Shown in pieces: positions 996-24,598 of a stretch of 64,000 nt of DNA (the stretch's first letter is position 1; every line of letters begins with the position of its first letter). The DNA is from Candidatus Marinacidobacterales bacterium (GTDB taxonomy: Bacteria; Acidobacteriota; Vicinamibacteria; Marinacidobacterales; DATDRI01). Both the position numbers and the translations under genes were made by a program. A model generated the notes under the pieces. That model was not told the DNA's origin. It saw only the letters and a list, made by a program, of their open reading frames with translations, and did no database searches. The stretch is taken from positions 5,529,783-5,593,782 of the forward strand of contig OZ245365.1 of the NCBI GenBank assembly GCA_965226495.1, written 5' to 3'.

Positions 996-1619
996 ATGTC
1001 GAAGAGATCAATTCTGCTGAGCATGGCAGTCGCCGGCTTGGCTCTTTCCACGTCACTATTGCTAGCCCAGGACGCGAAGTTCAATGCATTCGATGGCGAA
1101 TCCGAACGCGGTAGCACCAGCATCGCCTATTTCAGCCAACCCTCGGAGGACGAATTCAATGCGGAGGGAGGGTTTGTCATCACGTACGGTCGGCCCGAGT
1201 GGAAGGCCGAGTATGACGCTCAGTTCGATGAACTGACCAAAGGAAAGCGGTGGCGCTTCGGGAGCAATTCCTGGACGACCTTGGATACGAACATCCCGCT
1301 CAAGATTGCGGGAGCCAAAGTCGGCCCGGGTTACTACTACCTCGTCCTCGAGCGCGGCCAGGGTGACGACTGGTCGCTGGTAATTCTCGACCCCAAACCG
1401 CTGCAGAAGAAAAAGATGGCTGCCTCTGGGGCGGAGGAGACTTCCGGGGGCATCAACGCTCCGTTGAAAGCGAGCATGACTGCGGAACCTGCCACAAGGC
1501 TCACGGTAAACTTAACCAAGAATGAAAACGACCTAACGAAGGCGTCGTTGGATATTCAATGGGGCAAGCGCAAGCTCTCCGCTCCGATCGACGTGGGAGT
1601 CGAAGTCCCGAGCTCCTAG
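996..1619 (+). CDS. Secreted hypothetical protein, DUF2911-like (recalled from memory)
   Basis: ATG at 996 lies 8 nt after GGAGG. Signal peptide MSKRSILLSMAVAGLALSTSLLLAQD. Conserved-looking core GRPEWKAEYDAQFDEL...RWRFGSNSWTTLDT...GPGYYYLV. High GC3 coding bias. Confidence 0.65.
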   Translation: MSKRSILLSMAVAGLALSTSLLLAQDAKFNAFDGESERGSTSIAYFSQPSEDEFNAEGGFVITYGRPEWKAEYDAQFDELTKGKRWRFGSNSWTTLDTNIPLKIAGAKVGPGYYYLVLERGQGDDWSLVILDPKPLQKKKMAASGAEETSGGINAPLKASMTAEPATRLTVNLTKNENDLTKASLDIQWGKRKLSAPIDVGVEVPSS

Positions 1620-1643
1620 ATACCGCTGTCCCCAGAGTGGCGT

Positions 1644-1682
1644 AGCCGCCCGGGTAGAGCGGCTGCGCCCTTTCTTCTTTCC
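1644..1682. terminator. Candidate bidirectional intrinsic terminator between convergent genes
   Basis: AGCCGC-ccgggtaga-GCGGCT stem-loop (1644-1664) followed by a T-rich tract (ccctttcttctttcc). It lies between the stop of the + gene (1619) and the stop of the - gene (1682). Confidence 0.4.
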
Positions 1683-2131
1683 TAGCTCTTCTTTCTCACG
1701 ATACGATCCAGCGAAAAGCGGCCCGCCCCCATCAAAACCAAGGCAACAAAGATCAGAAAATAGAGGAGCGCCTTCTCTGGATCTCGCCAGCCCTCGATGG
1801 TCTCCTCCGATGCTTGGTAGAGGCCGAGCCAGACGAGTACGTGCAGCTGAAATTGGTGACGTAAGGTCCCAGCGATCAACATGGTGAAAGCGGAAAAGGA
1901 CGCTGCCCAGCGAGTAAAGAGTCCGAACGCGACGAGAAGACCGCCCGCGAATTCCGCGAGCGCCGCCGCCCAGGCGAACACACCGGGCAGTGGAAACCCC
2001 AACCGAGCAACCCCCTCGATGAAGCCAGCAGCGTCTCCCGAAACAAGGGCCGCGATCTTTCCCCAACCATGCGCCAAAGCAAGTCCGACACCGGCCAAAC
2101 GCAACACCAACAAAGCCACGTCTTTCGTCAT
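1682..2131 (-). CDS. DoxX-family membrane protein
   Basis: 149-aa ORF with four predicted TM helices and DoxX-like hydrophobic pattern (LLRLAGVGLALAHGWGKI...GGLLVAFGLFTRWAA). Confidence 0.7.
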   Translation of the reverse strand: MTKDVALLVLRLAGVGLALAHGWGKIAALVSGDAAGFIEGVARLGFPLPGVFAWAAALAEFAGGLLVAFGLFTRWAASFSAFTMLIAGTLRHQFQLHVLVWLGLYQASEETIEGWRDPEKALLYFLIFVALVLMGAGRFSLDRIVRKKS

Positions 2132-2159
2132 CGTTTATTCCATCTCCCTAACACACCGG

Positions 2160-5100
2160 TCACCTTTGTGATGGCTTGGTTATGACTTCTTGGTGAATCT
2201 CTTGAAGGCTTCTTGGATCGAATCGACCTTGTTTCAGTGCTTCGATACCGGCGACGGTCGCGTTGGCGCCGGTGAGAGTCGTGATGCAGAGGATGCCATG
2301 CTGTATGGCCGTCATGCGAATCGCTTCTTCGTCATAGAAAGACTTTCTTCCGAGGGGCGTATTCACTATCAGGTCGACCTTGCCGCTGATCAGATGATCG
2401 ACGATATGCGGACGTCCTTCGTTTACTTTGAACACTCGCTCGGCGGATAGCCCGTTGGACTCGAGAAACGCCGCCGTCCCACGGCTGGCCACGAGGCGGA
2501 ACCCCAGTCGCGATAATCGTCGCGCCACCGACACTAGGCCCGTCTTATCATTATTGTTTACGGAGAGGAAAGCGGTTCCAGACGTCGGCACCTTGTGGCC
2601 GGCCGCTATTTGCGCCTTCGCAAAGGCGCATCCGAAATCATAGGAGATACCCATGACCTCACCGGTCGACTTCATTTCGGGTCCGAGAAGGGTATCGACC
2701 CCGGGAAATTTCACGAAGGGAAACACTGGAACTTTGATGGAGACTTGCGGGACCGGGAGCTCTGGGGGTAGCCCCAGGGAAGCCACCGATTCACCCAACA
2801 TGACCCGAATCGCCGCCTCAACGAGGGAAACACCGGTCGCCTTGCTTACGAACGGAACGGTTCGAGACGCTCTCGGGTTGGCCTCGAGCACGTAGACTGT
2901 CCCATCTTTAATCGCGTACTGGACGTTGATGAGTCCCTTCACTTGGAGCGCTCGCGCTATCTCTCGCGTATAGTTTCGGATCGTGTCGAGATGCGCCGGC
3001 TCTACCAGATAGGGAGGTAGGACGCTCGAGCTATCCCCAGAATGAATCCCCGCTTCCTCGATATGCTCCATGATCCCGCCGATCACAACGTCCACCCCAT
3101 CGGACAAAGCGTCGACATCGACCTCGAACGCATCCTCCAGAAAGCGGTCGATGTAGACCGGATGAGAAGGTGAAGCCGCAACGGCATGGCTCATATATCC
3201 CCCGAGGTATTCACGGTCGTAAGCGATAGCCATCGCACGACCGCCCAACACGTAAGACGGGCGCACCAAGATGGGGTAGCCGATGGCCGACGCCGCCTCG
3301 AGGGCCTCCGCGATCGAGCTGGCCGTGGCGCTCTCGGGTTGTGGAATTCCTAGCTTGGCTAGGAGCGACGAAAACCGCTGGCGGTCCTCTGCGATGTCGA
3401 TGCTGTCCGGCGAAGTACCAAGGATGGATACTCCCGCAGCTTCCAGCGCACGCGACAGCTTGAGCGGCGTCTGTCCCCCCAATTGCACGATGGCCGCTTC
3501 GGGCCGTTCGGCGTCCACGATGTGAAGGACATCCTCCAAAGTGAGCGGCTCGAAGTAGAGTCGATCCGAGGTGTCGTAGTCCGTCGAGACCGTCTCCGGG
3601 TTGCAGTTGACCATGATGGACTCTATTCCTCGGTCCCGAAGCGCGTAAGCCGCCTGACAGCAACAGTAGTCGAACTCGATGCCTTGCCCGATTCGATTGG
3701 GGCCACTCCCCAAGATCACTAGCTTGCGCCGATCGCTCGGCTCCACTTCGCTCTCCGATTGGTATGTGGAGTAGAGGTACGGCGTGTGGGAAGCGAACTC
3801 CGCAGCGCAGGTGTCGACCCGCTTGAAAACCGGCACGATGTGCTGCCTTGTTCTCTCTTGTCGGATCGACTCCTCGCTGGTGTTGGTCAGAACTGAAATT
3901 TGTCGGTCTGAGAAACCACAGGCCTTCGCCTCGGCGAGAAGCCCATCGAAACCCTCCGAAACAAGCCGGTCCTTGAGCTCAACGATGATACGGAGCTGTT
4001 CTAGAAACCACGGGTCGACTTTGCTGAGTCGGTGAATCTCCTCAATCGAAAACCCTTGCGACAGAGCGCCAATCAACTGCGCCAGCCGATCCGGCGTCGG
4101 TACCGGAAGGAGTTGTCGGAGCTTGCTAGGATCCACCGGCTCGGCGTTCAAGACACTGGTCCCTTCGTCGTTCCGCTCGAGCGAACGGAGCGCCTTCAAT
4201 AGCGCCTCTCGAAAGTTGGACCCGAGGGCCATGACTTCCCCGACCGATTTCATTTGCGTCCCCAGCGTCGGGTCAGCCTTGGGAAATTTCTTGAAGTTCC
4301 ACCGTGGCATCTTGACCACCACGTAATCGATGGTGGGCTCGAAGCTTGCGGGAGTGGTGCGGGTGATGTCGTTCTCGATCTCGTCCAAACGATAGCCGAT
4401 CGCAACCTTCGCGGCGATCTTGGCGATCGGGAAGCCGGTCGCCTTGGAGGCCAAGGCCGAGCTGCGAGAGACACGCGGGTTCATCTCGATGATCACCATG
4501 CGCCCCGTCGAAGGCTCGACGGCGAACTGGATGTTGCTGCCCCCCGTCTCCACGCCAACCGCATCGATGACACGACGAGCTTGATCGCGCATCTGCTGGT
4601 ATTCCACATCGGTCAACGTTTGCGCTGGCGCAACAGTGATGGAGTCCCCGGTATGAACCCCCATCGGATCGAGGTTTTCGATCGAACAGATAACGGTAAA
4701 GTTCGAAGCGCCGTCCCGCATTACTTCGAGCTCGAACTCTTTCCAGCCCAACAGGGACTCTTCAATCAGTACACGCCCTACCGGCGAGAGGAAGAGCCCG
4801 CGTCGCATCAGCTCAATGAACTCGTCCAAGTTGTAAGCAATGCCTCCGCCCGCCCCACCCAAGGTGAAGGACGGCCGTATGATCGCGGGGTAACCTATCT
4901 CTTCGACGAGCGCGACGGCTTCTTCGACGCTCCCTGCATCACCGCTCTCCGGAACGTCGAGACCCGCCTCGGTCATCGCTTGCTTGAATAGTTGTCGATC
5001 TTCGGCGAGTTTCACCGCTTCGAGATTGGCACCGATGAGGCGGACACCGTAGCGATCGAGCACACCCGAATCGGCGAGCTCCACGGCAAGATTGAGTCCG

Positions 5101-10137: not shown

Positions 10138-13100
10138 CTAGTCTTGTACCGCGTCCCGCCGCAATGCGAAGAGCTCTTTGAGATCGCCCGTGGAAAGTTC
10201 GGTCAACCATCCCTCTCCGGCACGCACCACCAAATCTGCGAGATCCTTTTTTTGCTCGATGAGCTCGTCGATTTTCTCTTCCACGGTGCCGGCACATATG
10301 AATTTATGCACCGCAACCGATCGTGTCTGGCCGATTCGGAAAACGCGATCGGTCGCTTGGTTCTCGACGGCCGGGTTCCACCAGCGATCGAAATGAAACA
10401 CGTGACGCGCACGCGTCAGGTTCAAACCGAATCCGCCCGCCTTGAGTGAAAGCACGAAGACACTTGGTCCCGGCACTTCCTCTTGGAAACGGGTAATCAT
10501 TTCGTCCCGCTGGCGCACGGGAACCGCGCCATGAAGAAAGAGCACTTCGGTCGACAGCGCTTCGCGCAAATGCCGATGCAGCATACGACCCATCTCGGCG
10601 AACTGAGTAAAGATGAGGGCTCGATCGCCCTCGGCTAACACTTCTTCCAACATTTCGGTGATTCGGGTTAGTTTGCCGGAACGGCCATCGAGCTCGCTGT
10701 CGTCCCCAAGGTAATGAGTGGGATGGTTGCACACCTGTTTCAGCCGCGTGAGCGCAACGAGAACCTCGCCCTTGCGGCCCATGCCTTCGGAGTGGTCGAT
10801 GCGAGTCAGGCTCTCGCGCACTACGGCTTCGTAGAGTGTCGCCTGCTCTCGAGTCAGGCTGCAAAAAACCTTCATTTCGTTCTTGCGTGGAAGATCCTTG
10901 ATCACCGTGGGGTCGGTCTTCACGCGGCGCAGCACGAAAGGTTGCACGAGACGGCGGAGCTCTTCGGTAGCCTCTGGATCGCGGTACCTCTCGATGGGCA
11001 CCGCGAAACGTCGCTTGAACGAGAGATGAGAGCCCAGATACGAGGGGTTCAAAAACTCCATGATCGACCACAGCTCGGAAAGGCGATTCTCGACCGGTGT
11101 GCCGGTAAGAGCCACCCGGATCGGAGCGCCTAGACGCGTCACCGACTTGGTTTGCTTGGCGGCGGGGTTTTTGATGTTTTGTGCCTCGTCTAAGACCAGA
11201 CCATCCCACTGAACTGCCGAAAGACGTTTTAGATCGCGATGAACCAAGCTGTAGCTCGAGACCACCAAATCGTGTCGTGCCGCCTGTCGGACGAAGGCGT
11301 CTCCCTCACGGCGTCCCAATCCGTGGTGAATCAATACTCGCAATGCAGGTGCGAATCGCTCCGCCTCCTTCCTCCAGTTGCTCATCACCGAAGTGGGACA
11401 AATCAGAAGGAACGGGCGTTTCAGCTCGCCCGCTTGCCGGCGATGAAGGAGGAACGCAAGCATCTGAATGGTTTTTCCGAGTCCCATATCATCTGCCAGG
11501 CACGCCCCGAGGCCCCACTTTCCGAGAAAGGTGAGCCAGGAAAGACCGCTAACCTGATAGGGCCGAAGCTGACCCTGGAAGTCACCCGGCGGGTCGAGCA
11601 TTGGCAAAGACTCCATACCCCCGAGCCTCCCCAAAAGTGTTTCGACCCAACCATCCGCCTCCAATCCACGGACCGGCAAGCCGTCTTCGCCGCGGCCGAG
11701 TCCCAACTGCAGGACTTCTCGAAGCGACATCACCGCTCGCGCCGGTTGGGAGCCGATCACTTTTAGCGCTTCCGCGACGTGCTCCTCTTTGAGCTCTACC
11801 CACCGGCCGCGCAGGCGAACCAATGGCTGCTTGAGCGAGACGAGCTGAAGAAACTCTTCACGGTCTAAGCTCTCGTCACCGATGGCGACTTGCCAATCGA
11901 ACTCTACGAGAGCATCGAGACCGAGAGCCGAGTCGACCCTTCCGGGATCCTCGGGGGCCGCCACGTGAAGCTTCAATCCGAAACCCGCTTCCTGCTTTTC
12001 CCACCAGGACGGAACGAGAACGCCGAAACCACTTTCGCGTAAGAGAAAAGCTGACTCGCGAAGAAAAAGATAGGCTTCGTCCAAGTCCAAATCGCAATAC
12101 TCGGGCCTAGATTCCTTCAAGCTTTCTTCGATCGGTGGGAAAAGCGTCGAGGCGCGGCCGAGCGCTTCGAGGGCTCGTTCCTGCGGACGGTCCATCCGAC
12201 GTTGGAGATAACGCCAACTCTGTCCCGCATGTCTCCAAATTCGACCCACGGGAATGAGGAGACTCGGGTCATCGACGGCCTGCAGAAAAAACTGGAGCCT
12301 CCATCTTTCGCCGGCCCCGGCGCCTTCTCCTTCAGGTGGATCGAGTCGGAAAGCGATCCGAAAAGGCGCTTCGGTCTCGTCCTCCAAGGACCGGCGCCAA
12401 TCGGCCAGCTCGAGCTCCAACGAGCGTCTCTCGTTTCCAGTTGCGGAAAGCGCGCCCTGGGAATCCAATAGAGCCGCCGCGAAGTGAGCACCTTGGCTAT
12501 CGATGACACGAGGTCTCAGTCTCAGGCGCGAGGCAGCCTGACGCACGAAGACATCGACGGCGGTCGCCAGGAAATCGTTCAACAAGTCGTCGGGGTCGAC
12601 ACCTTTGCGATTGGCTTGAACGAAAGCGCGGCAAACCGGAGGCATCGCCGAGGCCAAACCTTCCACTCGCTCGTCCTCCTCATCCAGCAAAGGCTCCCAA
12701 AGAGCGCGGGCCCTGGAATTCGACCCGTCCACACCGGGTAAGAATCTCTGACGCGCGAGGAGCTCGAGCGCCATACGCGCCGCAGTAGCCCAAAAGCGCA
12801 CATCCTGCCCTAGCCGTACGCGTAACGGAGTTTGACTGAGCTCGTCAAAATGACCAGGCTCACTGGGGAGGCTCGCCAACCATCCGAGTGCGGTCATGGG
12901 CGCAAGCGATAGGCCCGGGATTCGCCATTTGGCCAAACGTTTCGCGGAAGAGATCTCGCGCTCGTCGACGATCAATTCTGGGGACGCCACCGGTTCCCCG
13001 TGAAGACTCGGCAGGAAAAAATCCGATTCGCCTCGTGAAAAGCTGGCTTGATAACCGTTTTCCCCGAATGCCGCGAAGATCTCCTCTTCGATCTGCCGGC

Positions 13101-13338
13101 GAGGCGAGTGAAACGGATGAAGGGGCGCGGCATCCGCCTTGGTGCGACCGCGAGGGGGCGCGGGAGAACCGGTTTCTCCCCAGAGGAAGAACCCTCCTCC
13201 TCCAGATGACGGAATCCATGTTCCGTGGGCGACAATCACGTGATTCGTCTCAAAAAGCCGAGGCGGCGCGTTCCGTCCAGGCGATCTTTCCAGTCTAGCA
13301 CGAGGCGGCCGAGCCCAAGCCTCCGAAACAAGTGCCAC
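10138..13338 (-). CDS. SNF2-family DEAD/DEAH-box helicase with long N-terminal SNF2-associated region
   Basis: LADDMGLGKTIQ (motif I), DEAQNIKN (motif II), LTGTPVENRLSELWSIMEFLNP and helicase-C motifs (GGFGLNLTRARHVFHFDRWWNPAVENQATDRVFRIGQ). A roughly 550-aa N-terminal non-catalytic region precedes them. Confidence 0.9.
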   Translation of the reverse strand: MALVSEAWARPPRARLERSPGRNAPPRLFETNHVIVAHGTWIPSSGGGGFFLWGETGSPAPPRGRTKADAAPLHPFHSPRRQIEEEIFAAFGENGYQASFSRGESDFFLPSLHGEPVASPELIVDEREISSAKRLAKWRIPGLSLAPMTALGWLASLPSEPGHFDELSQTPLRVRLGQDVRFWATAARMALELLARQRFLPGVDGSNSRARALWEPLLDEEDERVEGLASAMPPVCRAFVQANRKGVDPDDLLNDFLATAVDVFVRQAASRLRLRPRVIDSQGAHFAAALLDSQGALSATGNERRSLELELADWRRSLEDETEAPFRIAFRLDPPEGEGAGAGERWRLQFFLQAVDDPSLLIPVGRIWRHAGQSWRYLQRRMDRPQERALEALGRASTLFPPIEESLKESRPEYCDLDLDEAYLFLRESAFLLRESGFGVLVPSWWEKQEAGFGLKLHVAAPEDPGRVDSALGLDALVEFDWQVAIGDESLDREEFLQLVSLKQPLVRLRGRWVELKEEHVAEALKVIGSQPARAVMSLREVLQLGLGRGEDGLPVRGLEADGWVETLLGRLGGMESLPMLDPPGDFQGQLRPYQVSGLSWLTFLGKWGLGACLADDMGLGKTIQMLAFLLHRRQAGELKRPFLLICPTSVMSNWRKEAERFAPALRVLIHHGLGRREGDAFVRQAARHDLVVSSYSLVHRDLKRLSAVQWDGLVLDEAQNIKNPAAKQTKSVTRLGAPIRVALTGTPVENRLSELWSIMEFLNPSYLGSHLSFKRRFAVPIERYRDPEATEELRRLVQPFVLRRVKTDPTVIKDLPRKNEMKVFCSLTREQATLYEAVVRESLTRIDHSEGMGRKGEVLVALTRLKQVCNHPTHYLGDDSELDGRSGKLTRITEMLEEVLAEGDRALIFTQFAEMGRMLHRHLREALSTEVLFLHGAVPVRQRDEMITRFQEEVPGPSVFVLSLKAGGFGLNLTRARHVFHFDRWWNPAVENQATDRVFRIGQTRSVAVHKFICAGTVEEKIDELIEQKKDLADLVVRAGEGWLTELSTGDLKELFALRRDAVQD

Positions 13339-13406: not shown

Positions 13407-13502
13407 TGGCGGAGAGGGTGGGATTCGAACCCACGTGCCCAGTTATTAACCGGACAAGACGCTTTCGAGGCGCCCCCGTTACGACCACTTCGGTACCTCT
13501 CC
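13407..13502 (-). tRNA. tRNA-Ser (anticodon CGA), class II with long variable arm, CCA encoded
   Basis: Reverse complement folds as a cloverleaf: GGAGAGG acceptor stem; D-arm CCG...CGG; anticodon stem GGCGC/GCGTC with loop CTCGAAA (U33, anticodon CGA, A37); long variable arm; T-arm GTGGG-TTCGAAT-CCCAC; CCTCTCC-G-CCA. Confidence 0.9.
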
Positions 13503-13566: not shown

Positions 13567-14085
13567 CTACACGCGATCCCGCCGGTAGCGGAAAAAGTCC
13601 TGCATCAGTTTTCGGCAGTCATGCTCGAGAACACCTGAAATAACTGCCAGCCGGTGAGGCACCCGGATGCTTTCTAGATCCACAATCGATTCCACGGCCC
13701 CAAACTTGGGCTCCTTCGCTCCGTAGACCAACGTGCTGACCCGCGCGTGAACGATGGCTCCGATACACATCAGGCACGGCTCCACCGTTACATAAAGCGT
13801 CAACCCCCGGAGTCGGTAATCCCCAAGCTCCTTTGCGGCGTGGCGAATCGCAACCAGCTCTGCGTGTGCGGTGGGGTCAACCGTGTGGATGGGCTGATTG
13901 AACCCGGTCGCAACAATCACCTCATCCTTAGTCAGGATGGCGCCAATCGGCACCTCTCCCAAGTGGAGTGCTTTGTGCGCCGCCTCCAGGGCGTGTCGCA
14001 TCAACTCTTCGTGGGTCCCGATTCCTAAGTCCTCAGCGACGACGTTTCGCCTCGCATCACGCCGCGCAAGCCACTCGTCGCACAC
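13567..14085 (-). CDS. tadA: tRNA-specific adenosine deaminase
   Basis: CMP/dCMP deaminase zinc motifs HAELVAIRHA and PCLMCIGAI. N-terminus ELMRHALEAAHKALHLGEVPIGA aligns with E. coli TadA. The exact start is uncertain (ATG 14085 or ATG 14001). Confidence 0.85.
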   Translation of the reverse strand: MCDEWLARRDARRNVVAEDLGIGTHEELMRHALEAAHKALHLGEVPIGAILTKDEVIVATGFNQPIHTVDPTAHAELVAIRHAAKELGDYRLRGLTLYVTVEPCLMCIGAIVHARVSTLVYGAKEPKFGAVESIVDLESIRVPHRLAVISGVLEHDCRKLMQDFFRYRRDRV

Positions 14086-14149
14086 ACATTATAATAGGAA
14101 CCGCCCGATTTCGCGCCCGATTGCCGCTTGAAATCCCAACTATCCGAAG

Positions 14150-14228
14150 TGCTAAAAATTTAGCAAATAAACTTGACGGGACCGCGGTCTCAGTGCTAGA
14201 TTTCCAGCATGATGCTGAAATATTAGCA
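14150..14228. promoter_or_regulatory. Three TGCT-N8-AGCA dyad sites (14150-14165, 14194-14209, 14213-14228) upstream of the blaI-like gene; putative repressor operators overlapping a TTGACG(14173)...TAGATT promoter
   Basis: TGCTAAAaaTTTAGCA is a perfect palindrome. TGCTagatttccAGCA and TGCTgaaatattAGCA share the same half-sites. They lie in the tadA/blaI divergent intergenic region; GAGGAGG RBS at 14241. Confidence 0.5.
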
Positions 14229-14256
14229 TGGCAGGAAGTCGAGGAGGCGAAACCAC

Positions 14257-14664
14257 GTGACCAAGAAACATTCGATGGGCGAAAAAGCGTATCTAAGCTT
14301 GAGCACTCGGGAACGGCAGATCATGGACTTGTTGTATCGCTTTGGCCAGTCTACCGCGGCCGAAGTGCAGGCCAACCTGCCCGATCCTCCGGGTTACTCG
14401 GCGGTGCGGGCAACGCTACGCATCCTGGAGGAAAAGGGACACGTTGGCCACGACCAGGACGGTCCGCGTTACGTCTTCACTCCTACCGTGGGGCAGGACA
14501 AGGCCAAGCGCTCTGCTATCCAACACCTTCTTCACACGTTCTTTAACGGATCGACCGAGCAGGCCGTCGCTACGCTCTTGGACGATTCCACCGCCGATCT
14601 CTCGTCCGAAGAGCTGAGCCGCCTCGCGAAGCTGATCGACAAGGCGCGCACGAAAGGAGCCTAG
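14257..14664 (+). CDS. BlaI/MecI/CopY-family transcriptional repressor
   Basis: Winged-helix N-terminus (LSTRERQIMDLLYRFGQSTAAEVQANL...SAVRATLRILEEKGHV) and C-terminal dimerisation helix. GTG start with RBS. 2-nt gap to the following M56 gene. Confidence 0.8.
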   Translation: MTKKHSMGEKAYLSLSTRERQIMDLLYRFGQSTAAEVQANLPDPPGYSAVRATLRILEEKGHVGHDQDGPRYVFTPTVGQDKAKRSAIQHLLHTFFNGSTEQAVATLLDDSTADLSSEELSRLAKLIDKARTKGA

Positions 14665-14666
14665 CC

Positions 14667-16775
14667 ATGTCTTGGACCCTCTTCACTGCGAACATTCTCG
14701 TCAAAGGATTTGTTGTCCTGGGAGTGGCTTCTCTGATGACCGTCGCACTGAGACAGGCCTCGGCGGCGACGCGGCACGTCGTTTGGGCGTTGGCGCTGAT
14801 CAGTCTTCTGGCCTTGCCTTTCTTGTCTTCGGCCTTGCCCACGTGGCAGCTGCCGCTGCCGGTAATGTTCTTGCCGGCTACGCCTTCACCCGACACCCTT
14901 GTTCCTGAACGCGGCGTCGTTGCTGCGGCCCCGACCACGACCGTTCGACCCAAACGCAACGTGTCGCCCTCTACTGAAACGCGGCCGTCCCCCTCCCAGC
15001 GTCCCGCACCGGCCGGTGATCGCACCGGCTCGACTCTGGCGACCATTGGTTGGCAAACCTGGGTCCTGGCGATCTGGCTCGCCGGATTGGCGCTATTCGC
15101 TTCGCGCATCCTCGTTGGCTTGGTTCGAAGCCGCCATGCCGTGCGCTCGGCGCATGCGATCAAAGATCCCTCGTGGAAGCTTCTGTGTGAAGAAATCGCA
15201 GATAAGTTTGGGATCTCGCAAAGGGTCAGGCTGCTAGAAAGCCCTCGTGCCTCATTGCCTGTGACTTGTGGGTTCTTTCGTTCCTCGGTGCTCCTACCGG
15301 AAAACGCCAACGAATGGACGGCGGAGCGGCGGCGGAGTGTGTTGCTTCATGAGATGGCTCACGTGAAGCGTCGAGACTGCCTCGTCCAGTTGTTCGCGCA
15401 ACTCACCTGTGCTGCACACTGGTGCAACCCGGCTGTTTGGTTCGCGGCAAGAGAGTTACGGCGCGAGAGCGAGCGAGCCTGCGACGATCTGGTCTTGCAC
15501 GCGGGTACCCGCCCTTCCGATTATGCGCACGACCTTCTCGACATGGCTCGGGTATTGACCATGACCCCGACTCCTACCCTGGCCGCGGTCACGCTCGCGC
15601 ACCGTTCAAGGCTCGAGGAGCGACTCCTGGCCATTCTGAATCCCAAGCTCCCGCGGCGAGCCCTGAGTCGCCTTTCCGTCTCGTTAGCCACGCTGGCAGT
15701 CGTTCTCTTCGTTCTCCCATTGGCGACGCTCGTGCCGTCTGCAAAGGCCAGAGAGACATTGCGACCCCACTCGCCGAACCCGCTACTACTCTTAGAAGAG
15801 AGTGCGTTGGAAAATAAAATGAGCGAACGGGTCCGTTTGCAGGGGCGGGAAACGGACGGAGGGATCCAAACGCTTTCCGAAGTGGAAACAAAGGAGCAGG
15901 ACGTGGACTCGGATCGCGACCGTCAGGTGAACGTTCGCGACGTCGATGACGATGGTGACGACGACGATGAGCGAGAGCGTGTGGACGAGCGCTTGTTGAT
16001 CCCGCTAATGGAAGCACTCTCCGATCCGGAACCGGCGGTTCGAGAGCAAGCGGCGGAGGTGCTTGGCGACCTCGAAGACGAAAGAGCGGTCGAGCCCCTC
16101 ATGGCAGCCGTCACCGATGAAAATGAGGACGTGCGAGCGCAGGTCATTTGGGCGCTCGGAAACATGGAAGATCCTCGAACCTTCGAAACCCTCCGTACCG
16201 CACTTCGCGATGAGAGCGAAGAAGTCCAGGAGAGCGCGATCTGGGCTCTTGGGCAACTCGAAGACCCACGGTCGATCGACGCCTTGACCGAAGCGCTCAA
16301 ATCTGCGAATCCCGACATCCGGGAGACGGCCGCCACCTCTCTTGGAAGGATCGAGGACCCTCGCGCGATCGGTGCATTGGAGAGCGTGATCCACGACGAA
16401 AGCTCCGACGTCCGAGAGCAGACCGTCTGGGCACTCGGCATGATCGAAGATCCCGGCTCGGTGCCGGCTTTGAAGGAGGCGCTCCAGGATGAGAATCCTG
16501 ACGTCCGTGAGCAGGCCGCTTGGGCGCTCGGCAAAACGGAAGATCCGAGCGCGCTCGATGCTCTCGCGACCGCAGTAAACGATGAGAGTCCCGATGTCCG
16601 TGAACAAGCCGTCTGGGCAATGGGCATGATCCAGGATGCCCGCTCGGTAGACGCCTTGATCGTTGCGCTCAAAGATCAAGAACCCGACATCCGCGAACAG
16701 GCCGCTTGGGCGCTCGGCATGATCCAGGATTCCCGCGCCGTCGACCCTCTGATCGCCGCCGTCACCGATTCCTAA
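14667..16775 (+). CDS. BlaR1-like M56 metalloprotease signal transducer fused to acidic linker plus about 9 HEAT (PBS-lyase type) repeats
   Basis: N-terminal TM helices; M56 motif SVLLHEMAHVKRRDCLVQL (HExxH); more TM segments; acidic stretch DVDDDGDDDDERERVDE; then about 31-aa repeats (DPxVRxQAAWALGxIxDxRAVxxLxxALKDE). It ends at TAA 16773-16775. Confidence 0.8.
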   Translation: MSWTLFTANILVKGFVVLGVASLMTVALRQASAATRHVVWALALISLLALPFLSSALPTWQLPLPVMFLPATPSPDTLVPERGVVAAAPTTTVRPKRNVSPSTETRPSPSQRPAPAGDRTGSTLATIGWQTWVLAIWLAGLALFASRILVGLVRSRHAVRSAHAIKDPSWKLLCEEIADKFGISQRVRLLESPRASLPVTCGFFRSSVLLPENANEWTAERRRSVLLHEMAHVKRRDCLVQLFAQLTCAAHWCNPAVWFAARELRRESERACDDLVLHAGTRPSDYAHDLLDMARVLTMTPTPTLAAVTLAHRSRLEERLLAILNPKLPRRALSRLSVSLATLAVVLFVLPLATLVPSAKARETLRPHSPNPLLLLEESALENKMSERVRLQGRETDGGIQTLSEVETKEQDVDSDRDRQVNVRDVDDDGDDDDERERVDERLLIPLMEALSDPEPAVREQAAEVLGDLEDERAVEPLMAAVTDENEDVRAQVIWALGNMEDPRTFETLRTALRDESEEVQESAIWALGQLEDPRSIDALTEALKSANPDIRETAATSLGRIEDPRAIGALESVIHDESSDVREQTVWALGMIEDPGSVPALKEALQDENPDVREQAAWALGKTEDPSALDALATAVNDESPDVREQAVWAMGMIQDARSVDALIVALKDQEPDIREQAAWALGMIQDSRAVDPLIAAVTDS

Positions 16776-16935
16776 AGCGACGTCCGGGCCGAGGTCGTTG
16801 GCGCCCTCGGAATGCTCCAGGACCGACGAGCCCTCGACACCTTGACGCAAGCCATCAAGGACGAAGACCCGGGACGTCCGCGCACAGGCACTTTGGGCGA
16901 TCTCCATGTTGGCTCGTGGATCGGACGACGAGTGA
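16776..16935 (+). pseudogene. Decayed continuation of the HEAT-repeat array after an in-frame stop, with an extra G causing a frameshift
   Basis: After the TAA the same frame continues SDVRAEVVGALGMLQDRRALDTLTQAIKDEDPG, a further HEAT unit. Removing one G in CCGGGACGTCCG restores ...KDEDPDVRAQALWAISMLARGSDDE* ending at TGA 16933-16935. Confidence 0.55.
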
Positions 16936-17004
16936 CGACCGCGCGGCATAGCGTCCTCTGAGACACCGGCCAGCCGCCATGCCGGAAGTCGGGGCCGATG
17001 AAGC

Positions 17005-18408
17005 ATGAAGACGGCGCTTTTTTTCCTCCTCTCGTCGACGCTCGTTGCTGCCGCTGAGCAACCGCGAGTCAGCGCCTACGAGCTCGACGTCTCTTTTTTC
17101 CCGGACACGAGGTCGATGGAAGGCCTCGCTCTGATTCGCTTCGAGCCTACCGATAGCGCTCCGCCCACACTCACGTTCTACCTCCACGGCGAGCTCTCGG
17201 TAGACGCGGTTCATCTCGGCGAGGACTCGCTCGAAATAGAGCAGGACCAGGTGTTCTACGACTTCGACTACTCCCTGGTCGCAACCAGAGTCCGACTCGA
17301 GCTCGAAGGAAAGAACCTGGACCAGGGCCTCTCGATAACCTATTCGGGATTTTTCAACCCGTCGCAAGCTCGGTCACGCACCGACTACATGCGCATCGAC
17401 TCGGACGGTGTCTTTCTACGAGCCTATGGATACTCCCTCTGGTTCCCGACCTTCTTGGAAGCGCAACGAGACTCTTACCCGGTCTCCTTTTCCAAGGTCA
17501 TGCTCCGAACGCCGCCCGATTTCGAATCCGTTTTCGTGGGCCGCAAGCTCACAGAGCGCCAAGAGGACGGCCAACGAGTGACCGAATGGATCGCGGAGGG
17601 GATCAACTTGATCGACGCCCAATGTACGGCTCAGCGGTACTCCGTCACCGCTCACGGCGGCTACTTTCTTTATCATCATGATGACCAAGTGTCGCGGGCC
17701 GCGACAGAGCGCATCCTGCTTTTCGCGAAACAGCTGAACGGCTTCTACCAGAACGTATATAAGAAGGATGCGGATGCTCCCCAGTTCCATATTATGGATA
17801 TGCCCCGCTATGGCGACATCTCGAGCGGCAACGTAGTCGGGATCAACCGCGAGTTGTGGGTCGAGCTCGATGAAACCTCTTACCCCGCGCGAGTCCTCGC
17901 TCACGAGCTGGTTCATCCCTTGGTGCATGTTGATACGAATCGTGCCGACCCCTTGGCGGCTTTGGCGGTCGAAGGATTCCCTGCGTACTTCCACCTTCCG
18001 ATCATGGCGGAGTTTTTGGGCGAGGACTACTACCGGACGCACCTAAAGCGGACCGAGACGCGCTATCTAGAGAAAAAATCCTCGGGAACCGATCGTCGCG
18101 GACATCCGTTGCCCCAAGAGAAACCGCTTCTCGATATCGAGGAGGACGAGATCGGTGCCTACAAAGATCCCTTTCTTCTATCGGACCGGGCGCTCTTGTT
18201 CTTCGATTACCTCCGAAGACAAATGGGCCACGATTTGTTCTTCGCCTTCATCCGGACCCTTTTTAACCGCGAAAAGCTAGACTTGGCGACCTTCGAAGCC
18301 ACCGTACTCGATTACCTGCCCGGGACAAAAGGAGAACTCGATCTGTGGCTCAGGACGACCGATTACCCCGAACAGCTTCGACTAGATCACGGGGAAAGGA
18401 CCAGATGA
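17005..18408 (+). CDS. Secreted zinc metallopeptidase, gluzincin (HExxH-X18-E; M1-like)
   Basis: Signal peptide MKTALFFLLSSTLVAAA. HELVHPLVHVDTNRADPLAALAVEGFPAY gives HExxH plus Glu 18 residues after the second His. Stop overlaps the next gene start (ATGA). Confidence 0.65.
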   Translation: MKTALFFLLSSTLVAAAEQPRVSAYELDVSFFPDTRSMEGLALIRFEPTDSAPPTLTFYLHGELSVDAVHLGEDSLEIEQDQVFYDFDYSLVATRVRLELEGKNLDQGLSITYSGFFNPSQARSRTDYMRIDSDGVFLRAYGYSLWFPTFLEAQRDSYPVSFSKVMLRTPPDFESVFVGRKLTERQEDGQRVTEWIAEGINLIDAQCTAQRYSVTAHGGYFLYHHDDQVSRAATERILLFAKQLNGFYQNVYKKDADAPQFHIMDMPRYGDISSGNVVGINRELWVELDETSYPARVLAHELVHPLVHVDTNRADPLAALAVEGFPAYFHLPIMAEFLGEDYYRTHLKRTETRYLEKKSSGTDRRGHPLPQEKPLLDIEEDEIGAYKDPFLLSDRALLFFDYLRRQMGHDLFFAFIRTLFNREKLDLATFEATVLDYLPGTKGELDLWLRTTDYPEQLRLDHGERTR

Positions 18409-20801
18409 TGCAGACGTTCTTCCAAGACATTCGGTTCGGCTGTCGATCGCTGTGGAAACAACCCACCTTCACTGCCGTTGCGGTGATCACCATCGCCTTG
18501 GGCATTGGTGGCAACACGGCCATGTTCAGCGTGGTGAACGCGGTACTCCTCAAACCTTTCTCCTTCCAGGATCCGGAACAACTCGTTCGTGTCGAGAGCC
18601 GCAACTCCTATCCCGATGTGGCCGACTGGATCCAACAGTCTCGGACGGGAGAGAACTTCGGTGGATACGCGACGTTTTTTCTCGACCTGACCCAAGGGGA
18701 CGAGCCGGAGCGCATACCGGGTTCGGCGGTCACCGGAAGCCTCTTTCCGCTACTGGGCGTCAACCCCGCCCTAGGCCGAACACTCGAGCCCGATGACGAC
18801 GTTCCCGGCGGGGCACGTGTCATCCTTCTGAGCGACGGCTTCTGGAAAAGGCATCTGGGTAGCGATCCCGAGATCGTCGGCAAGCCTCTTTCCTTTAATG
18901 GAGATCAATACACGGTGGTGGGGGTCATGCCGATGGGGTTCCAGCTGCCTCTCAATCGTTCCGAGACTTGGGTACCGACTCGGGTGGTGATGCGGGAAGC
19001 CTCCGCGGCACGCGGGGCACACATGTTTCAAGCGGTGGGCCGTCTCAAGACAGACGTGAGCCTCGAACAGGCGCAGGCCGATATGGACAATATCGCAGCT
19101 CGTCTCGAGGAGCTCTACCCTGAGGAGAACCTCGACCGCCGTTTCATTCTCGCTCCGCTACAGGAGTACGTTGCTCGTGGAGCGAGACCCACGCTGGTGA
19201 TCCTTCTCGGCGCGGTCGGTTTTGTCTTGCTCATCGCTTGCGCGAATGTCGCCAACTTGCTGCTGGCGCGAGGGGCGGCGAGACAGCGTGAGATCGCCTT
19301 GCGCGCTGCGCTGGGCGCCGGACGCGCGCGGCTTTTCCGCCAGCTACTGACAGAGAGCGTACTTCTCTCGCTCGCCGGCGGAGCGCTCGCCGCGCCCTTA
19401 GCGTTCGCCATCGTGCGCGTCGTCGTGGCGCTCGGCTCGGAGAGCATCCCTAGACTCGACGAGATCGCACTAGACGGACACGTCTTGGGCTTCGCACTCG
19501 GGCTCTCCGTCCTCACCGGGATCGTGTTCGGACTCATTCCCGCCGCCCACGCCACAGTACCGCGCCTCTTCGATGCACTCAGGGAGGGTGGTCGAGCCTC
19601 GGGTAGCGTTTTGCCCCGCAGATTCCGCAGCGGACTCGTCGTTTCCGAGATGGCGTTGGCAGTCGTGTTGTTGATCGGGGCCGGCCTCTTGCTACGGAGT
19701 TTCTATCAACTACAGAACGTCGAGCCCGGGTTCGACCACGAAAAACTCTTAACGATGGAATTTTCTCTTCCCGCCAGCACCTATCGTGAGATACCCAAAA
19801 GAATTCTCTTCTATCAACGGCTACTCGAAGAGCTCGGCACCCTTCCTGGTGTCGAATCTGCGGCGGCGACCACCGAACTGCCGTTGGGAAGCAACTTCGT
19901 CCCTCACAACTTTGTGGTCGAGGGTAAACCCATGGATCCAGGAACCGAGCCCGAGATCTATTATCGCGGCATCAGCCCGGGCTACTTGGATACGATGGGC
20001 ATTCCGCTCCTTAAGGGTCGCCGCTTCACCGATCAAGACCGAGAGGGGGCCCCGAGCGTCGGCATCATTAATGAGGCCCTCGCTCGACAACTCTTCCCTG
20101 ATGAGGATCCCATCGGGCAAAGGTTCCGATGGGCGCGGCGGTCGGTCCTCTACTGGATCACCATCGTGGGTGTGGCAGGTGACGTGAGGCCCTTCGGGTT
20201 GGATGTCGCCGAGCAAGCGGCCGTCTACATACCATTCACGCAGGAGCGGGATTGGTGGCGAACGTGGATGCACGTTGTGCTCAGAACGACTACCGAGCCC
20301 ATGAGCTTGGCGCCGGCGATCAAGAGTCGCGTCGCGGAACTCGCCAAGACCATCCCGGTCGCCAACATCCGAGGCATGGAAGATCTCATGGCCGACTCGC
20401 TCGCCCCGCGCCGGGCACGATTTTGGTTGCTCGGAGGTTTCGCCGCGATCGCTATGCTCCTGGCCGCGGTTGGAATCTATGGCGTCCTCTCGTTCATGGT
20501 CGTGCAACGCACCAGCGAAATCGGCGTCCGCATGGCCCTGGGGGCGCGCCGGGCCGACGTCTTGAGAATGGTCATTGGCGAAGGAATGCTCTTGGCGATC
20601 GTCGGGATCGCCCTGGGAGTATTGGGAGCACTAGCTTTGACTGGAGTCATGTCGAGCCTTCTTTATGAAGTAAACGCCGCCGACCCGCTGACCTTCGTCA
20701 TCATCGCCGCCCTACTGACCGGTGTGGCTCTCGCCGCGAGCTTCGTGCCCGCCTTCCGGGCCACCCGAGTCGATCCCCTCACCGCACTCCATTACGAGTA
20801 A
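18405..20801 (+). CDS. ADOP-family duplicated ABC permease (MacB-like periplasmic domain plus two FtsX modules)
   Basis: Starts [49 protein letters not shown], the characteristic ADOP N-terminus. Two 4-TM FtsX-like blocks. The 4-bp overlap with the peptidase gene implies translational coupling. Confidence 0.85.
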   Translation: [798 protein letters not shown]

Positions 20802-22789: not shown

Positions 22790-23560
22790 ATGTCTAGAAA
22801 ACTTCCTTTGATTGCTAGCTTTCTCGCATTGTTTTCCCTGAGCGTGCCGGTGATGGCCCAGCGCACCACCGGGAACATCGTTGGAGTCGTGTCCGACGAG
22901 ACCGGCGCGATTTTGCCGGGAGTGACAGTCACGATAGCTGGTCAATACCTCATGGCTTCTCAAACCGCGACGTCCACCGCGTCCGGACGCTACCGGTTTC
23001 CCAACTTGCCGCCCGGTCCCTACACACTGACCTTCAGCCTCACCGGGTTCGCTTCCTTAACTCGCAGCGACCTGCGGTTGGAAACCGGCGCGACTCTCGA
23101 AGTGAACGTTGTGCTCAAGTTGAGCCAGGTCGCCGAGTCGGTCACCGTGACCGGAGAACAACCGGTCGTCGACGTACGTTCCTCCGAAATAAGCACCAAC
23201 TACGATCGCGAATGGGTAGAGAATGCTCCGCTTCCACGCTTCACCTTCTTCGACCTCATCAACGCGGCCCCGGGCATCAGCCAGAACGACTCACAGGACT
23301 CCCGATCCACCGCACTCGGCTCGGGAACAGACGAGAACTCCTATATGCTGGACGGCACAGATTTCACGTCCCCTTTTACCGGGGCCGCCTGGCCCTGGCC
23401 CAACACCGATGCCATCGCCGAAGTGGAGGTGCTGTCCTTAGGAGCTCCCGCCGAGTACGGCAACCTCTCCGGCGCTGTCTTCAACATCACCACTCGCCAG
23501 GGAAGTAACGACTTCCACGGGGATGTGAATTACTACTACCAATCCGAGGGCTTGACGGCT
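22790..23560 (+). pseudogene. TonB-dependent receptor, 5' fragment (signal peptide plus CarboxypepD_reg-like and plug start), interrupted by an IS
   Basis: MSRKLPLIASFLALFSLSVPVMAQRTTGNIVGVVSDETGAILPGVTVTI...FHGDVNYYYQSEGLTA, then IS sequence begins. The track ORF tail after 23560 is IS-derived. Confidence 0.75.
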
Positions 23561-24598
23561 TGTGACTTCAAGTTTGAAGCGCACCATTCGTTAGTTCCCA
23601 TGGAAACGTTCCTCCGGTGTGCGGTAACCGAGCCTCTTGCGGGGCCGTGTGTTGAGCTTCTTTGCGATACCATCGCAGTGGCGTTGCGTGAGCGCTGCTT
23701 GGCTGGTGCGCTTCGGCAGGTATTGTCGTAGCAATCCATTGAAGTTCTCGTTGCTGCCTCTCTCCCATGAGTGATAGGGAGTTGCAAAGTAGAACTTGAC
23801 GCCGGTCGCTTCCTCGACGGATTCGTAGTCGTGGAACTCCGTGCCATTGTCCGCGGTGATGGTCTTGACCTGATCCGGCACCCGCCGGAGCAACATCTTC
23901 GTTCGCTGGCTAGTGCCGAACATGCTGCGGTCGGACAGTTTGCCGATCAGCGCATAGCCCGTCTTTCGTTCCACGAGCGTGGTGACGCAGTCCGGCGCGT
24001 CTTTTCCTACCACGGTGTCAATCTCCCAGTGGCCAACGGCACGGCGCTTGTCGATACAAGACGGCCGCTCGGAGATGTGACGCTTCCCGGCCAGGCGGCC
24101 TCGGCTGTCGTAGCTGTTGTGGCGCTTGCGTCTAAGTTTGGGCGAGCATCGAAGGTGGCGGTATAGATGTCCTCCGGCCTCCTTGTCCCGCCAAACGTGG
24201 GTGTAGATCGTCTCGTGGCTGATCGAGAGCTCGCCGTGAAGGCGCAGGTGGCCGGAGATCTGCTCTGGGCTCCAGTCGGCCTTAAGCTTCTTCTCCACCA
24301 GGGCAAAGTCGGCCTTTGTGAAGTACTGGTTCCGGCGAGACCGCGAGCGTCGTCCGTTCGTTCTCTCGATGGCCTTGCTCGGCCGGTAGCATCCATCACT
24401 AGGTGAGCTGTTCCTCCTGACCTCTCTCGAGATGGTGCTCCGGTGGCGCCCCAGGCGCCGCGCGATCTCGGCCGAGCAAAATCCCTCCCGTCGCAGCGCC
24501 GCGATGGTGTAGCGTTCTTCCGAGGTGATCTGGTAATAAGTCATTAGCGAGTCCCCATTCTTGGTTGTTTGAGGAATCGTGGCACATTCCAGGTCACC
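23561..24598 (-). mobile_element. IS30-family insertion sequence (about 1.04 kb) inserted into the TonB-dependent receptor gene
   Basis: Single DDE transposase ORF flanked by imperfect terminal inverted repeats (left tGTGACttcaag...; right ...ccaGGTCACc). The host ORF resumes in frame after it. Boundaries are approximate to a few bp. Confidence 0.78.
23591..24544 (-). CDS. IS30-family transposase
   Basis: 317 aa. N-terminal HTH (YQITSEERYTIAALRREGFCSAEIARRLGRHRSTISRE) and C-terminal DDE integrase core (GHWEIDTV...ITADNGTEF...SWERGSNENFNGLLRQYLPK) typical of IS30. Confidence 0.85.
   Translation of the reverse strand: MTYYQITSEERYTIAALRREGFCSAEIARRLGRHRSTISREVRRNSSPSDGCYRPSKAIERTNGRRSRSRRNQYFTKADFALVEKKLKADWSPEQISGHLRLHGELSISHETIYTHVWRDKEAGGHLYRHLRCSPKLRRKRHNSYDSRGRLAGKRHISERPSCIDKRRAVGHWEIDTVVGKDAPDCVTTLVERKTGYALIGKLSDRSMFGTSQRTKMLLRRVPDQVKTITADNGTEFHDYESVEEATGVKFYFATPYHSWERGSNENFNGLLRQYLPKRTSQAALTQRHCDGIAKKLNTRPRKRLGYRTPEERFHGN

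Follow-up and report, generated by a model that had tools for sequence, protein, structure and literature searches.

Predicted TGCTA-N6-TAGCA operators at the promoter of a non-canonical blaI-blaR1 pair in Candidatus Marinacidobacterales

Repressors of the BlaI/MecI/CopY family are proteins of around 120-140 residues, with an N-terminal winged-helix DNA-binding domain and a C-terminal helical dimerisation domain. Canonical BlaI and MecI are inactivated by cleavage at Asn101-Phe102, within the dimerisation domain. In Bacillus licheniformis, BlaI dimers bind cooperatively to three operators (OP1-OP3), in its own promoter region and at the neighbouring gene. CopY recognises the cop box (TACAnnTGTA) and carries a C-terminal CxCx4CxC (or CxC) metal site. 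The bla intergenic region of S. aureus, which we took from a plasmid record (L195), has two dyads, ATTACAGTTGTAAT and ATTACAATTGTAAT, at a distance of 31 bp in the interval from which blaZ and blaR1-blaI diverge; they read ATTACA(G/A)TTGTAAT, i.e. ATTACA-NN-TGTAAT. TACA/TGTA is regarded as the conserved operator sequence of BlaI/MecI (review, PMC10226514). Two repressors of C. thermocellum, BlaI_0696 and BlaI_1845, bind the dyad GTCTAT-N5-ATAGAC in DAP-seq and EMSA; they autoregulate via two adjacent dyads taking four protomers and have very small regulons (PMC8457756). Non-canonical BlaIR pairs include CenIR in C. difficile (PMC13492132) and PvmSR in P. aeruginosa (bioRxiv 10.64898/2026.08.03.742534), and such pairs reportedly make up most of the family (PMC13492132). 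The terms operator, palindrome and inverted repeat are absent from both the CenIR paper (PMC13492132) and the PvmSR preprint.

We analysed a non-canonical pair in a 64-kb stretch of DNA from a Candidatus Marinacidobacterales bacterium, the whole of which is called the window hereafter (Table 1). An initial annotation had placed three TGCT-N8-AGCA 16-mers upstream of a blaI-like gene, and all three (named O1, O2 and O3) are present exactly there. The first is, as had been claimed, a perfect inverted repeat, with 7+7 bp around a 2-nt centre. The blaI-like gene encodes a full-length Penicillinase_R protein (PF03965, profile positions 1-114 of 115) and is followed by a gene for an M56 protease of the BlaR1 type. 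The latter starts 3 nt past the blaI stop, so the two genes are probably co-transcribed.

Table 1. Predicted regulatory elements and genes of the locus, in positions of the window.
Feature	Position	Strand	Remarks
O1 (distal operator dyad, predicted)	14150-14165	none	TGCTAAAAATTTAGCA; matrix score 26.8 bits
O2 (operator dyad, predicted)	14194-14209	none	TGCTAGATTTCCAGCA; matrix score 22.8 bits
O3 (operator dyad, predicted)	14213-14228	none	TGCTGAAATATTAGCA; matrix score 24.3 bits
-35 hexamer TTGACG	14173-14178	+	part of the sole sigma-70-like site in 13950-14350
Extended -10 inside O2	TG 14194-95, TAGATT 14197-14202	+	promoter search
Shine-Dalgarno-like GAGGAGG	14241-14247	+	9 nt before the GTG at 14257; kept in L001 and L002
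BlaI/MecI-family repressor gene	14257-14664	+	135 aa, GTG start; PF03965 E=1.3e-26
BlaR1-like M56 membrane metalloprotease gene	14667-16775	+	Peptidase_M56 E=5.5e-35; HEAT_2 E=1.2e-64
TadA-like deaminase gene	13567-14085	-	divergent from blaI; shares the intergenic region

A search with the repressor found 2,491 homologues. A single-sequence phmmer search against the PDB returned nothing at E<=0.01, and a profile of 24 sequences (the repressor and 23 homologues) matched the structures of MecI (1okr, E=1.3e-10, residues 3-122), BlaI (1sd4, E=3.4e-8) and M. tuberculosis BlaI (2g9w, E=7.5e-5). The matches to MecI and BlaI extend over the entire length of these structures, and the recognition helix (...GYSAVRATLRILEEKG) aligns with MecI K43-L52 in the profile alignment. 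The translation has no cysteine and hence no CxCx4CxC metal site, which shows that the repressor is not a CopY. Among ORFs of 80 aa or more, neither the window nor the compared loci have a second blaI paralogue (E<=1e-5). The M56 protein has an intact HExxH motif (reading HEMAH in the translation), and its C-terminal third (250 aa) consists of HEAT repeats in place of a penicillin-binding domain. A Pfam search found no transpeptidase or beta-lactamase domain in this protein, and no bla or mecA-like gene adjoins the pair.

Directly downstream of the gene for the TadA-like tRNA deaminase lies a tRNA-Ser(CGA) gene (13407-13502, -), and beyond it a 1066-aa ORF (10138-13338, -) in which SNF2-type helicase motifs (DEAQNIKN, LTGTPVENRLSELW) can be recognised by eye. 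On the other side, 3' of blaR1, a 467-aa ORF (17005-18408, +) has a HELVH motif and no Pfam match, and it is overlapped by a gene for an ADOP/MacB-type permease (MacB_PCD + FtsX; 18345-20801, +). Neither a terminator nor a promoter was found between blaR1 and the next gene (16700-17100).

The three dyads bracket and overlap the only sigma-70-like promoter found in the region searched. This agrees with the initial annotation, which had described a plausible TTGACG/TAGATT promoter at these sites, except that its 17-nt spacer has to be corrected to 18 nt. The GAGGAGG ribosome-binding site that it had proposed downstream of the dyads is also present. O1 ends 7 bp before the -35 and lies 44 bp from O2, centre to centre; O2 and O3 are separated by 3 nt (19 bp centre to centre). 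The TGCT of O2 supplies the TG of the extended -10 (TGn), i.e. the left half of this dyad (TGCTAGATT) doubles as a promoter element, and promoter function could therefore account for part of its conservation. O3 falls at about +3 to +20 of the transcript, taking the inferred transcription start. Judged from the sequence, the dyads overlap the promoter of their own operon, at -10/+1 and upstream of the -35, as is typical of the family. We estimate at roughly 85% the probability that the BlaI-family repressor from the next gene downstream uses O1-O3 as operators, through which it would repress its own promoter. This autoregulatory reading, already proposed in the initial annotation, is supported at the level of sequence comparison by conservation, by the reverse association of the motif with blaI (70 of 120 loci) and by covariation with the recognition helix.

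The motif, which has the consensus TGCTA-N6-TAGCA with an A/T-rich centre, is far more frequent in the window than expected by chance; a random frequency was one of the outcomes by which the initial annotation would have been refuted. The window has five matches to TGCTN8AGCA where 0.62 are expected, and none of 100 shuffles reached five. Three of the five are O1-O3; in the two others (at 24376 and 31863) the spacers are rich in GC, and the matrix described below scores them low or not at all. Base composition in the intergenic region is shifted towards AT (46-51% GC, with 47% over its 171 bp), so a shuffle was confined to these 171 bp. A single match appeared in 0.23% of the mononucleotide shuffles (200,000 in all) and in 0.24% of the 50,000 that preserved dinucleotides; none of the 250,000 yielded two or three. 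We also scanned the window with a weight matrix trained solely on sites from other genomes (L003-L023). The next-best position after the three dyads, at 22813, scored 12.1 bits (shuffle maxima 8.4-18.0), and no further target in the window stood above background. Within these 64 kb, the repressor's own promoter is thus its sole predicted target.

We then compared the upstream regions of repressor homologues across genomes (74 loci). The closest genomes are Candidatus Marinacidobacterales MAGs, with 93% and 91% protein identity. The window and loci L001 and L002 share 90% identity over the entire intergenic region, and conservation within this clade is therefore uninformative; substitutions in the dyads are confined to the spacers, and TGCT and AGCA are unchanged. 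Among the homologues with at least 50% identity, 16 of 23 have an exact TGCT-N8-AGCA within 250 bp upstream, against none of the 51 homologues below 46%. Taking all loci together, the upstream DNA (18 kb) contains 28 sites, and the 393 kb outside it contain 19. A 17th case is L004, where tandem dyads follow a TTGACA about 1.1 kb upstream, at the head of an operon composed of a HEAT gene, blaI and blaR1. In related loci, dyads with T-rich spacers occupy the promoter position of O2, and they are regularly followed, at 3-4 nt, by a second dyad whose spacer is A-rich. The loci come from MAGs labelled as Acidobacteriota, Gemmatimonadota, Planctomycetota, Rhodothermales and Actinomycetes, labels that should be taken with caution. 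Hence, the motif is kept upstream of related blaI-like genes in MAGs labelled as several phyla, and a lack of such conservation would have refuted the initial annotation. As a side observation, the HEAT module occurs as a separate gene behind tandem operators in L004 (1849-2968, ahead of blaI-blaR1) and in L176 (3-608, alone), and in the window it is instead fused to the C-terminus of the M56 protease.

The converse search was blind to proteins: we scanned metagenomes for the DNA pattern TGCT-N8-AGCA-N3/4-TGCT-N8-AGCA. It retrieved 120 loci, and in 70 of them a BlaI-family domain starts at most 200 bp downstream. A BlaI-like gene is found anywhere in the 683 kb of these loci in only 72 of them. 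The 50 loci that are not beside blaI comprise tandem direct repeats, contig ends and about a dozen sites that look genuine. We rejected six loci as operators (L092, L094, L112, L114, L142 and L164), whose 19-20-bp tandem direct repeats fit the pattern by their period alone; these arrays (for example L164, 8267-8636) are unrelated to blaI. Contig ends cut off L103, L133 and L149, and in L133 the blaI gene itself is truncated. The dozen or so convincing sites away from blaI include some ahead of genes for an ADOP/MacB-type permease (L190), HEAT-repeat proteins (L176, L004), a GNAT, a 360-aa lipoprotein (L135, L143), and TPR and CBM9/DUF5916 proteins. In L190, the permease gene (1353-3887) is directly preceded by TTGACA, 12 nt and TGCTGGAAATTTAGCA-tca-TGCTGAAATTTTAGCA, a layout which suggests that BlaI-type operators can control permeases of this type. 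In the unrelated contigs L135 (7327-8427) and L143 (118-1218), tandem dyads overlap the start of homologous 360-aa ORFs that lack a Pfam match and carry a lipoprotein-like signal (LLTGCA); a clear -35 was not seen at these dyads.

The 70 loci beside blaI have a common order: TTGAC(A), 14 nt, dyad 1, 3-4 nt, dyad 2. A TTGACA-like hexamer (5 or 6 of 6 positions) lies 12-15 nt 5' of dyad 1 in 50 of the 70, and at exactly 14 nt in 42. The spacer of dyad 1 is T-rich (TGCTAnTTTnnTAGCA), with a TGnTAnnTT usable as an extended -10, and that of dyad 2 is A-rich. The two dyads are therefore mirror images that together make up a palindrome of about 35 bp, which fits two dimers (four protomers), by analogy with the BlaI proteins of C. 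thermocellum (PMC8457756). O2 and O3 follow this plan, but the gap from the -35 to dyad 1 is 15 nt in the window, hence the 18-nt promoter spacer.

The distal dyad is much rarer. It is present in the window, L001, L002, L008 (with one mismatch), L016 and L111, always 41-44 bp upstream of dyad 1 and with 7-8 bp to the -35, and in just one of 65 metagenome loci. O1 is thus, as far as sequence comparison goes, a clade-specific addition. Its position raises the question of which gene it serves. The intergenic region is common to the divergent tadA-like gene, and classical bla operators sit between divergent genes, so that O1 might mainly control tadA and the region be bidirectional, like blaZ/blaR1 in S. 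aureus. We regard this as unlikely. A minus-strand promoter was not detected near O1, a housekeeping tRNA deaminase is an improbable target, and the distances to dyad 1 and to the -35 are fixed even in the unrelated L008, L016 and L111. The constant phase of the distal dyad, near four helical turns, is an argument for a role at the blaI promoter and against one at the divergent gene.

The sequence of the dyads varies with the recognition helix of the adjacent protein. Helices with YSAVRA pair with TGCT dyads. The YTAIRT proteins of Rhizomicrobium (L018, L020, L021) have TGCCAATTTTTTGGCA at the same promoter position, of the form TGCCAA-N4-TTGGCA. Two loci whose helix reads STVRT (L019, L022) have TGTTA...TAACA (TGTTA-N6-TAACA), and L011, with SAVRT, has TGCTA...TAACA. 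We note that in these six loci with variant dyads (L018, L020, L021, L019, L022 and L011) the residue that follows the invariant Arg of the helix has changed from Ala to Thr. Linker and promoter register vary as well. In the metagenomes, the linker measures 4 nt in each of the 12 loci whose helix reads YSTVRAQLRVLEEKG. In ten loci with the helix YSAVRAML[VA][KR]LE[ATH]KG (L077, L086, L087, L122, L137, L145, L150, L159, L170 and L186), dyad 1 is TGCT[AG]C-N4-GTAGCA, in most cases TGCTACG..CGTAGCA, and the -35 TTGAC(A/G) abuts it directly; the -10 must therefore lie in the linker and dyad 2, a 14-bp shift of register relative to the main group. The more distant Gemmatimonadota homologues (L024-L064, 36-45% identity) have a related but different dyad, CTACTA-N6-TAGTAG, within 160 bp upstream of blaI, and ACTA-N6-TAGT is found in 32 of these 41 loci. 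Their first dyad is fused to the -35 as TAGTTGACA, and a further copy maps close to the -10 and transcription start. Such covariation of helix and operator would be hard to explain unless the adjacent protein reads the sites.

These patterns bear on whether the dyads are bound by another transcription factor, e.g. a global regulator encoded elsewhere. The pairing of protein and sites is drawn entirely from comparative evidence, and tandem dyads are also found ahead of the ADOP permease, HEAT-repeat, GNAT and lipoprotein genes. These extra targets are nevertheless compatible with the same repressors having a small regulon. The motif goes with a single BlaI subfamily (17 of 23 close homologues, none of 51 distant ones), the majority of the blind matches adjoin blaI, and the operator variants track the helix of the neighbouring repressor across MAGs labelled as several phyla. 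We thus consider a different regulator very improbable. Slightly less credible still is that the conserved bases are promoter elements only, with an extended -10 (TGnTAnnnT) in O2 and the A/T-rich O1 as an UP element. O2's left half is indeed such a -10, the sequence of dyad 1 in related loci, 17 nt past the -35, is TGCTAnTTT, and O1 lies where an UP element would (about -45 to -60). However, promoter function leaves the invariant right half-site AGCA unexplained, and dyad 2/O3 is as conserved although it lies downstream of the -10. One subgroup has its dyads shifted by 14 bp relative to the -35, the Gemmatimonadota homologues fuse a dyad to it, and both dyad sequence and linker length co-vary with the helix. 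Finally, O3 lies in the inferred 5' leader and could form a 7-bp hairpin, but we give almost no weight to hairpins in an RNA leader or to chance AT-rich palindromes, since the fold of the leader does not surpass that of shuffled sequences (z = -0.79), O1 and O2 are located at or 5' of the transcription start, the intergenic region has no Rfam match, TGCT/AGCA are conserved where a hairpin would show compensatory changes without such conservation, and the window counts, matrix scan and intergenic shuffles rule out chance.

If O1-O3 are operators of the adjacent repressor, regulation could proceed as follows. Each 16-bp dyad would bind one dimer, with O2 covering the extended -10 and O3 the region from about +3 to +20. 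Together, O2 and O3 would act as the larger 35-bp palindrome and take four protomers, which would exclude RNA polymerase or block open-complex formation and escape. A third dimer at O1, on the same face of the DNA (about four helical turns from O2), would clamp the -35, probably cooperatively. The blaI-blaR1(HEAT) operon would thereby be under negative autoregulation. Following the model of BlaR1/MecR1, the HEAT-repeat region may sense a signal other than a beta-lactam and activate the M56 zinc protease, which would cleave or otherwise inactivate the repressor and so de-repress the operon. The proteolytic step is proposed by analogy only, because the staphylococcal Asn-Phe cleavage site aligns with Leu-Leu in this clade (MecI 'LNF' versus 'ALL' in the profile alignment).

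The mechanism itself, a BlaI-family repressor that autoregulates via dyad operators, is textbook, and the window has no categorically new element. What is distinct is the non-classical recognition sequence and the extra distal operator, and the consensus recurs in soil and marine bacteria with several phylum labels. In a limited literature search, with the M. tuberculosis BlaI motif outside the comparison, we found no description of TGCTA-N6-TAGCA, and 'undescribed' is to be read as provisional. We tentatively propose, at somewhat less than even odds, that this sequence, arranged as TTGACA, 14 nt, dyad, 3-4 nt and dyad, is the undescribed operator-promoter cassette of a very large non-canonical BlaI-BlaR1 clade. 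By MAG labels, this clade may span Acidobacteriota, Gemmatimonadota, Planctomycetota, Rhodothermales and Actinomycetes; its sister clades would have the variants TGCCA, TGTTA and TACTA. If so, the co-varying helix, half-site, linker and promoter register would insulate the many paralogous pairs of a genome from each other, and the same operators would bring additional genes into the regulon, such as those for ADOP/MacB-type permeases and HEAT-repeat proteins. A sequence code would then be available to assign promoters to their BlaI paralogues in soil and marine bacteria that have not been cultured. In practice, our analysis provides an operator consensus and a promoter architecture for a large and experimentally untouched group of non-beta-lactam BlaI-BlaR1 systems (Acidobacteriota, Gemmatimonadota and relatives). 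The motif and its covariation with the helix allow regulon prediction straight from MAGs, and they supply precise DNA probes for EMSA or DAP-seq, with ADOP permeases and HEAT-repeat proteins as candidate outputs.

The comparison with S. aureus BlaI/MecI reveals both shared and divergent traits. Both systems have a Penicillinase_R repressor with an M56 partner gene, dyads of 14-16 bp in multiple copies at the regulator's own promoter, and TA at positions 4-5 and 12-13 of the in-register 16-mer. They differ in the flanking triplet (TGC here, ATT in S. aureus), in the centre (A/T-rich here, CAnnTG in S. aureus), in the distances between dyads (19 bp and 44 bp here, 31 bp there) and in gene order (blaI then blaR1 here, the reverse there). 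The putative sensor is a HEAT-repeat region here and, in S. aureus as in canonical BlaR1/MecR1 systems, a C-terminal extracellular penicillin-binding (transpeptidase-like) domain. A beta-lactamase or PBP2a target is absent here, and the Asn-Phe cleavage site is likewise not conserved. The operators of B. licheniformis equal O1-O3 in number and differ in their TACA/TGTA sequence, and the system has a beta-lactamase target gene and a true penicillin receptor as sensor. CopY shares the winged-helix family and dyad binding, but it differs in its operator, and the repressor studied here lacks cysteine and a copA-type target. The initial annotation had described the dyads as BlaI/MecI/CopY operators: the family holds, the classical consensus does not, since the sites follow TGCTA-N6-TAGCA and the TACA..TGTA core is absent from all three. 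TACAnnTGTA marks the staphylococcal/CopY subgroup and not the whole family, because the C. thermocellum members use GTCTAT-N5-ATAGAC (PMC8457756). The latter resemble the system described here in being non-staphylococcal repressors with their own, paired dyads; they differ in half-site, in spacing and in their Gram-positive thermophile host, and have no described third distal operator. There is a parallel in gene content with CenIR, PvmSR and the BlaIR pairs of M. tuberculosis and M. abscessus, which also combine a BlaI-like repressor with an M56 protease lacking a transpeptidase-like beta-lactam sensor, and from which the HEAT-repeat C-terminal region sets the present pair apart as a different putative sensor.
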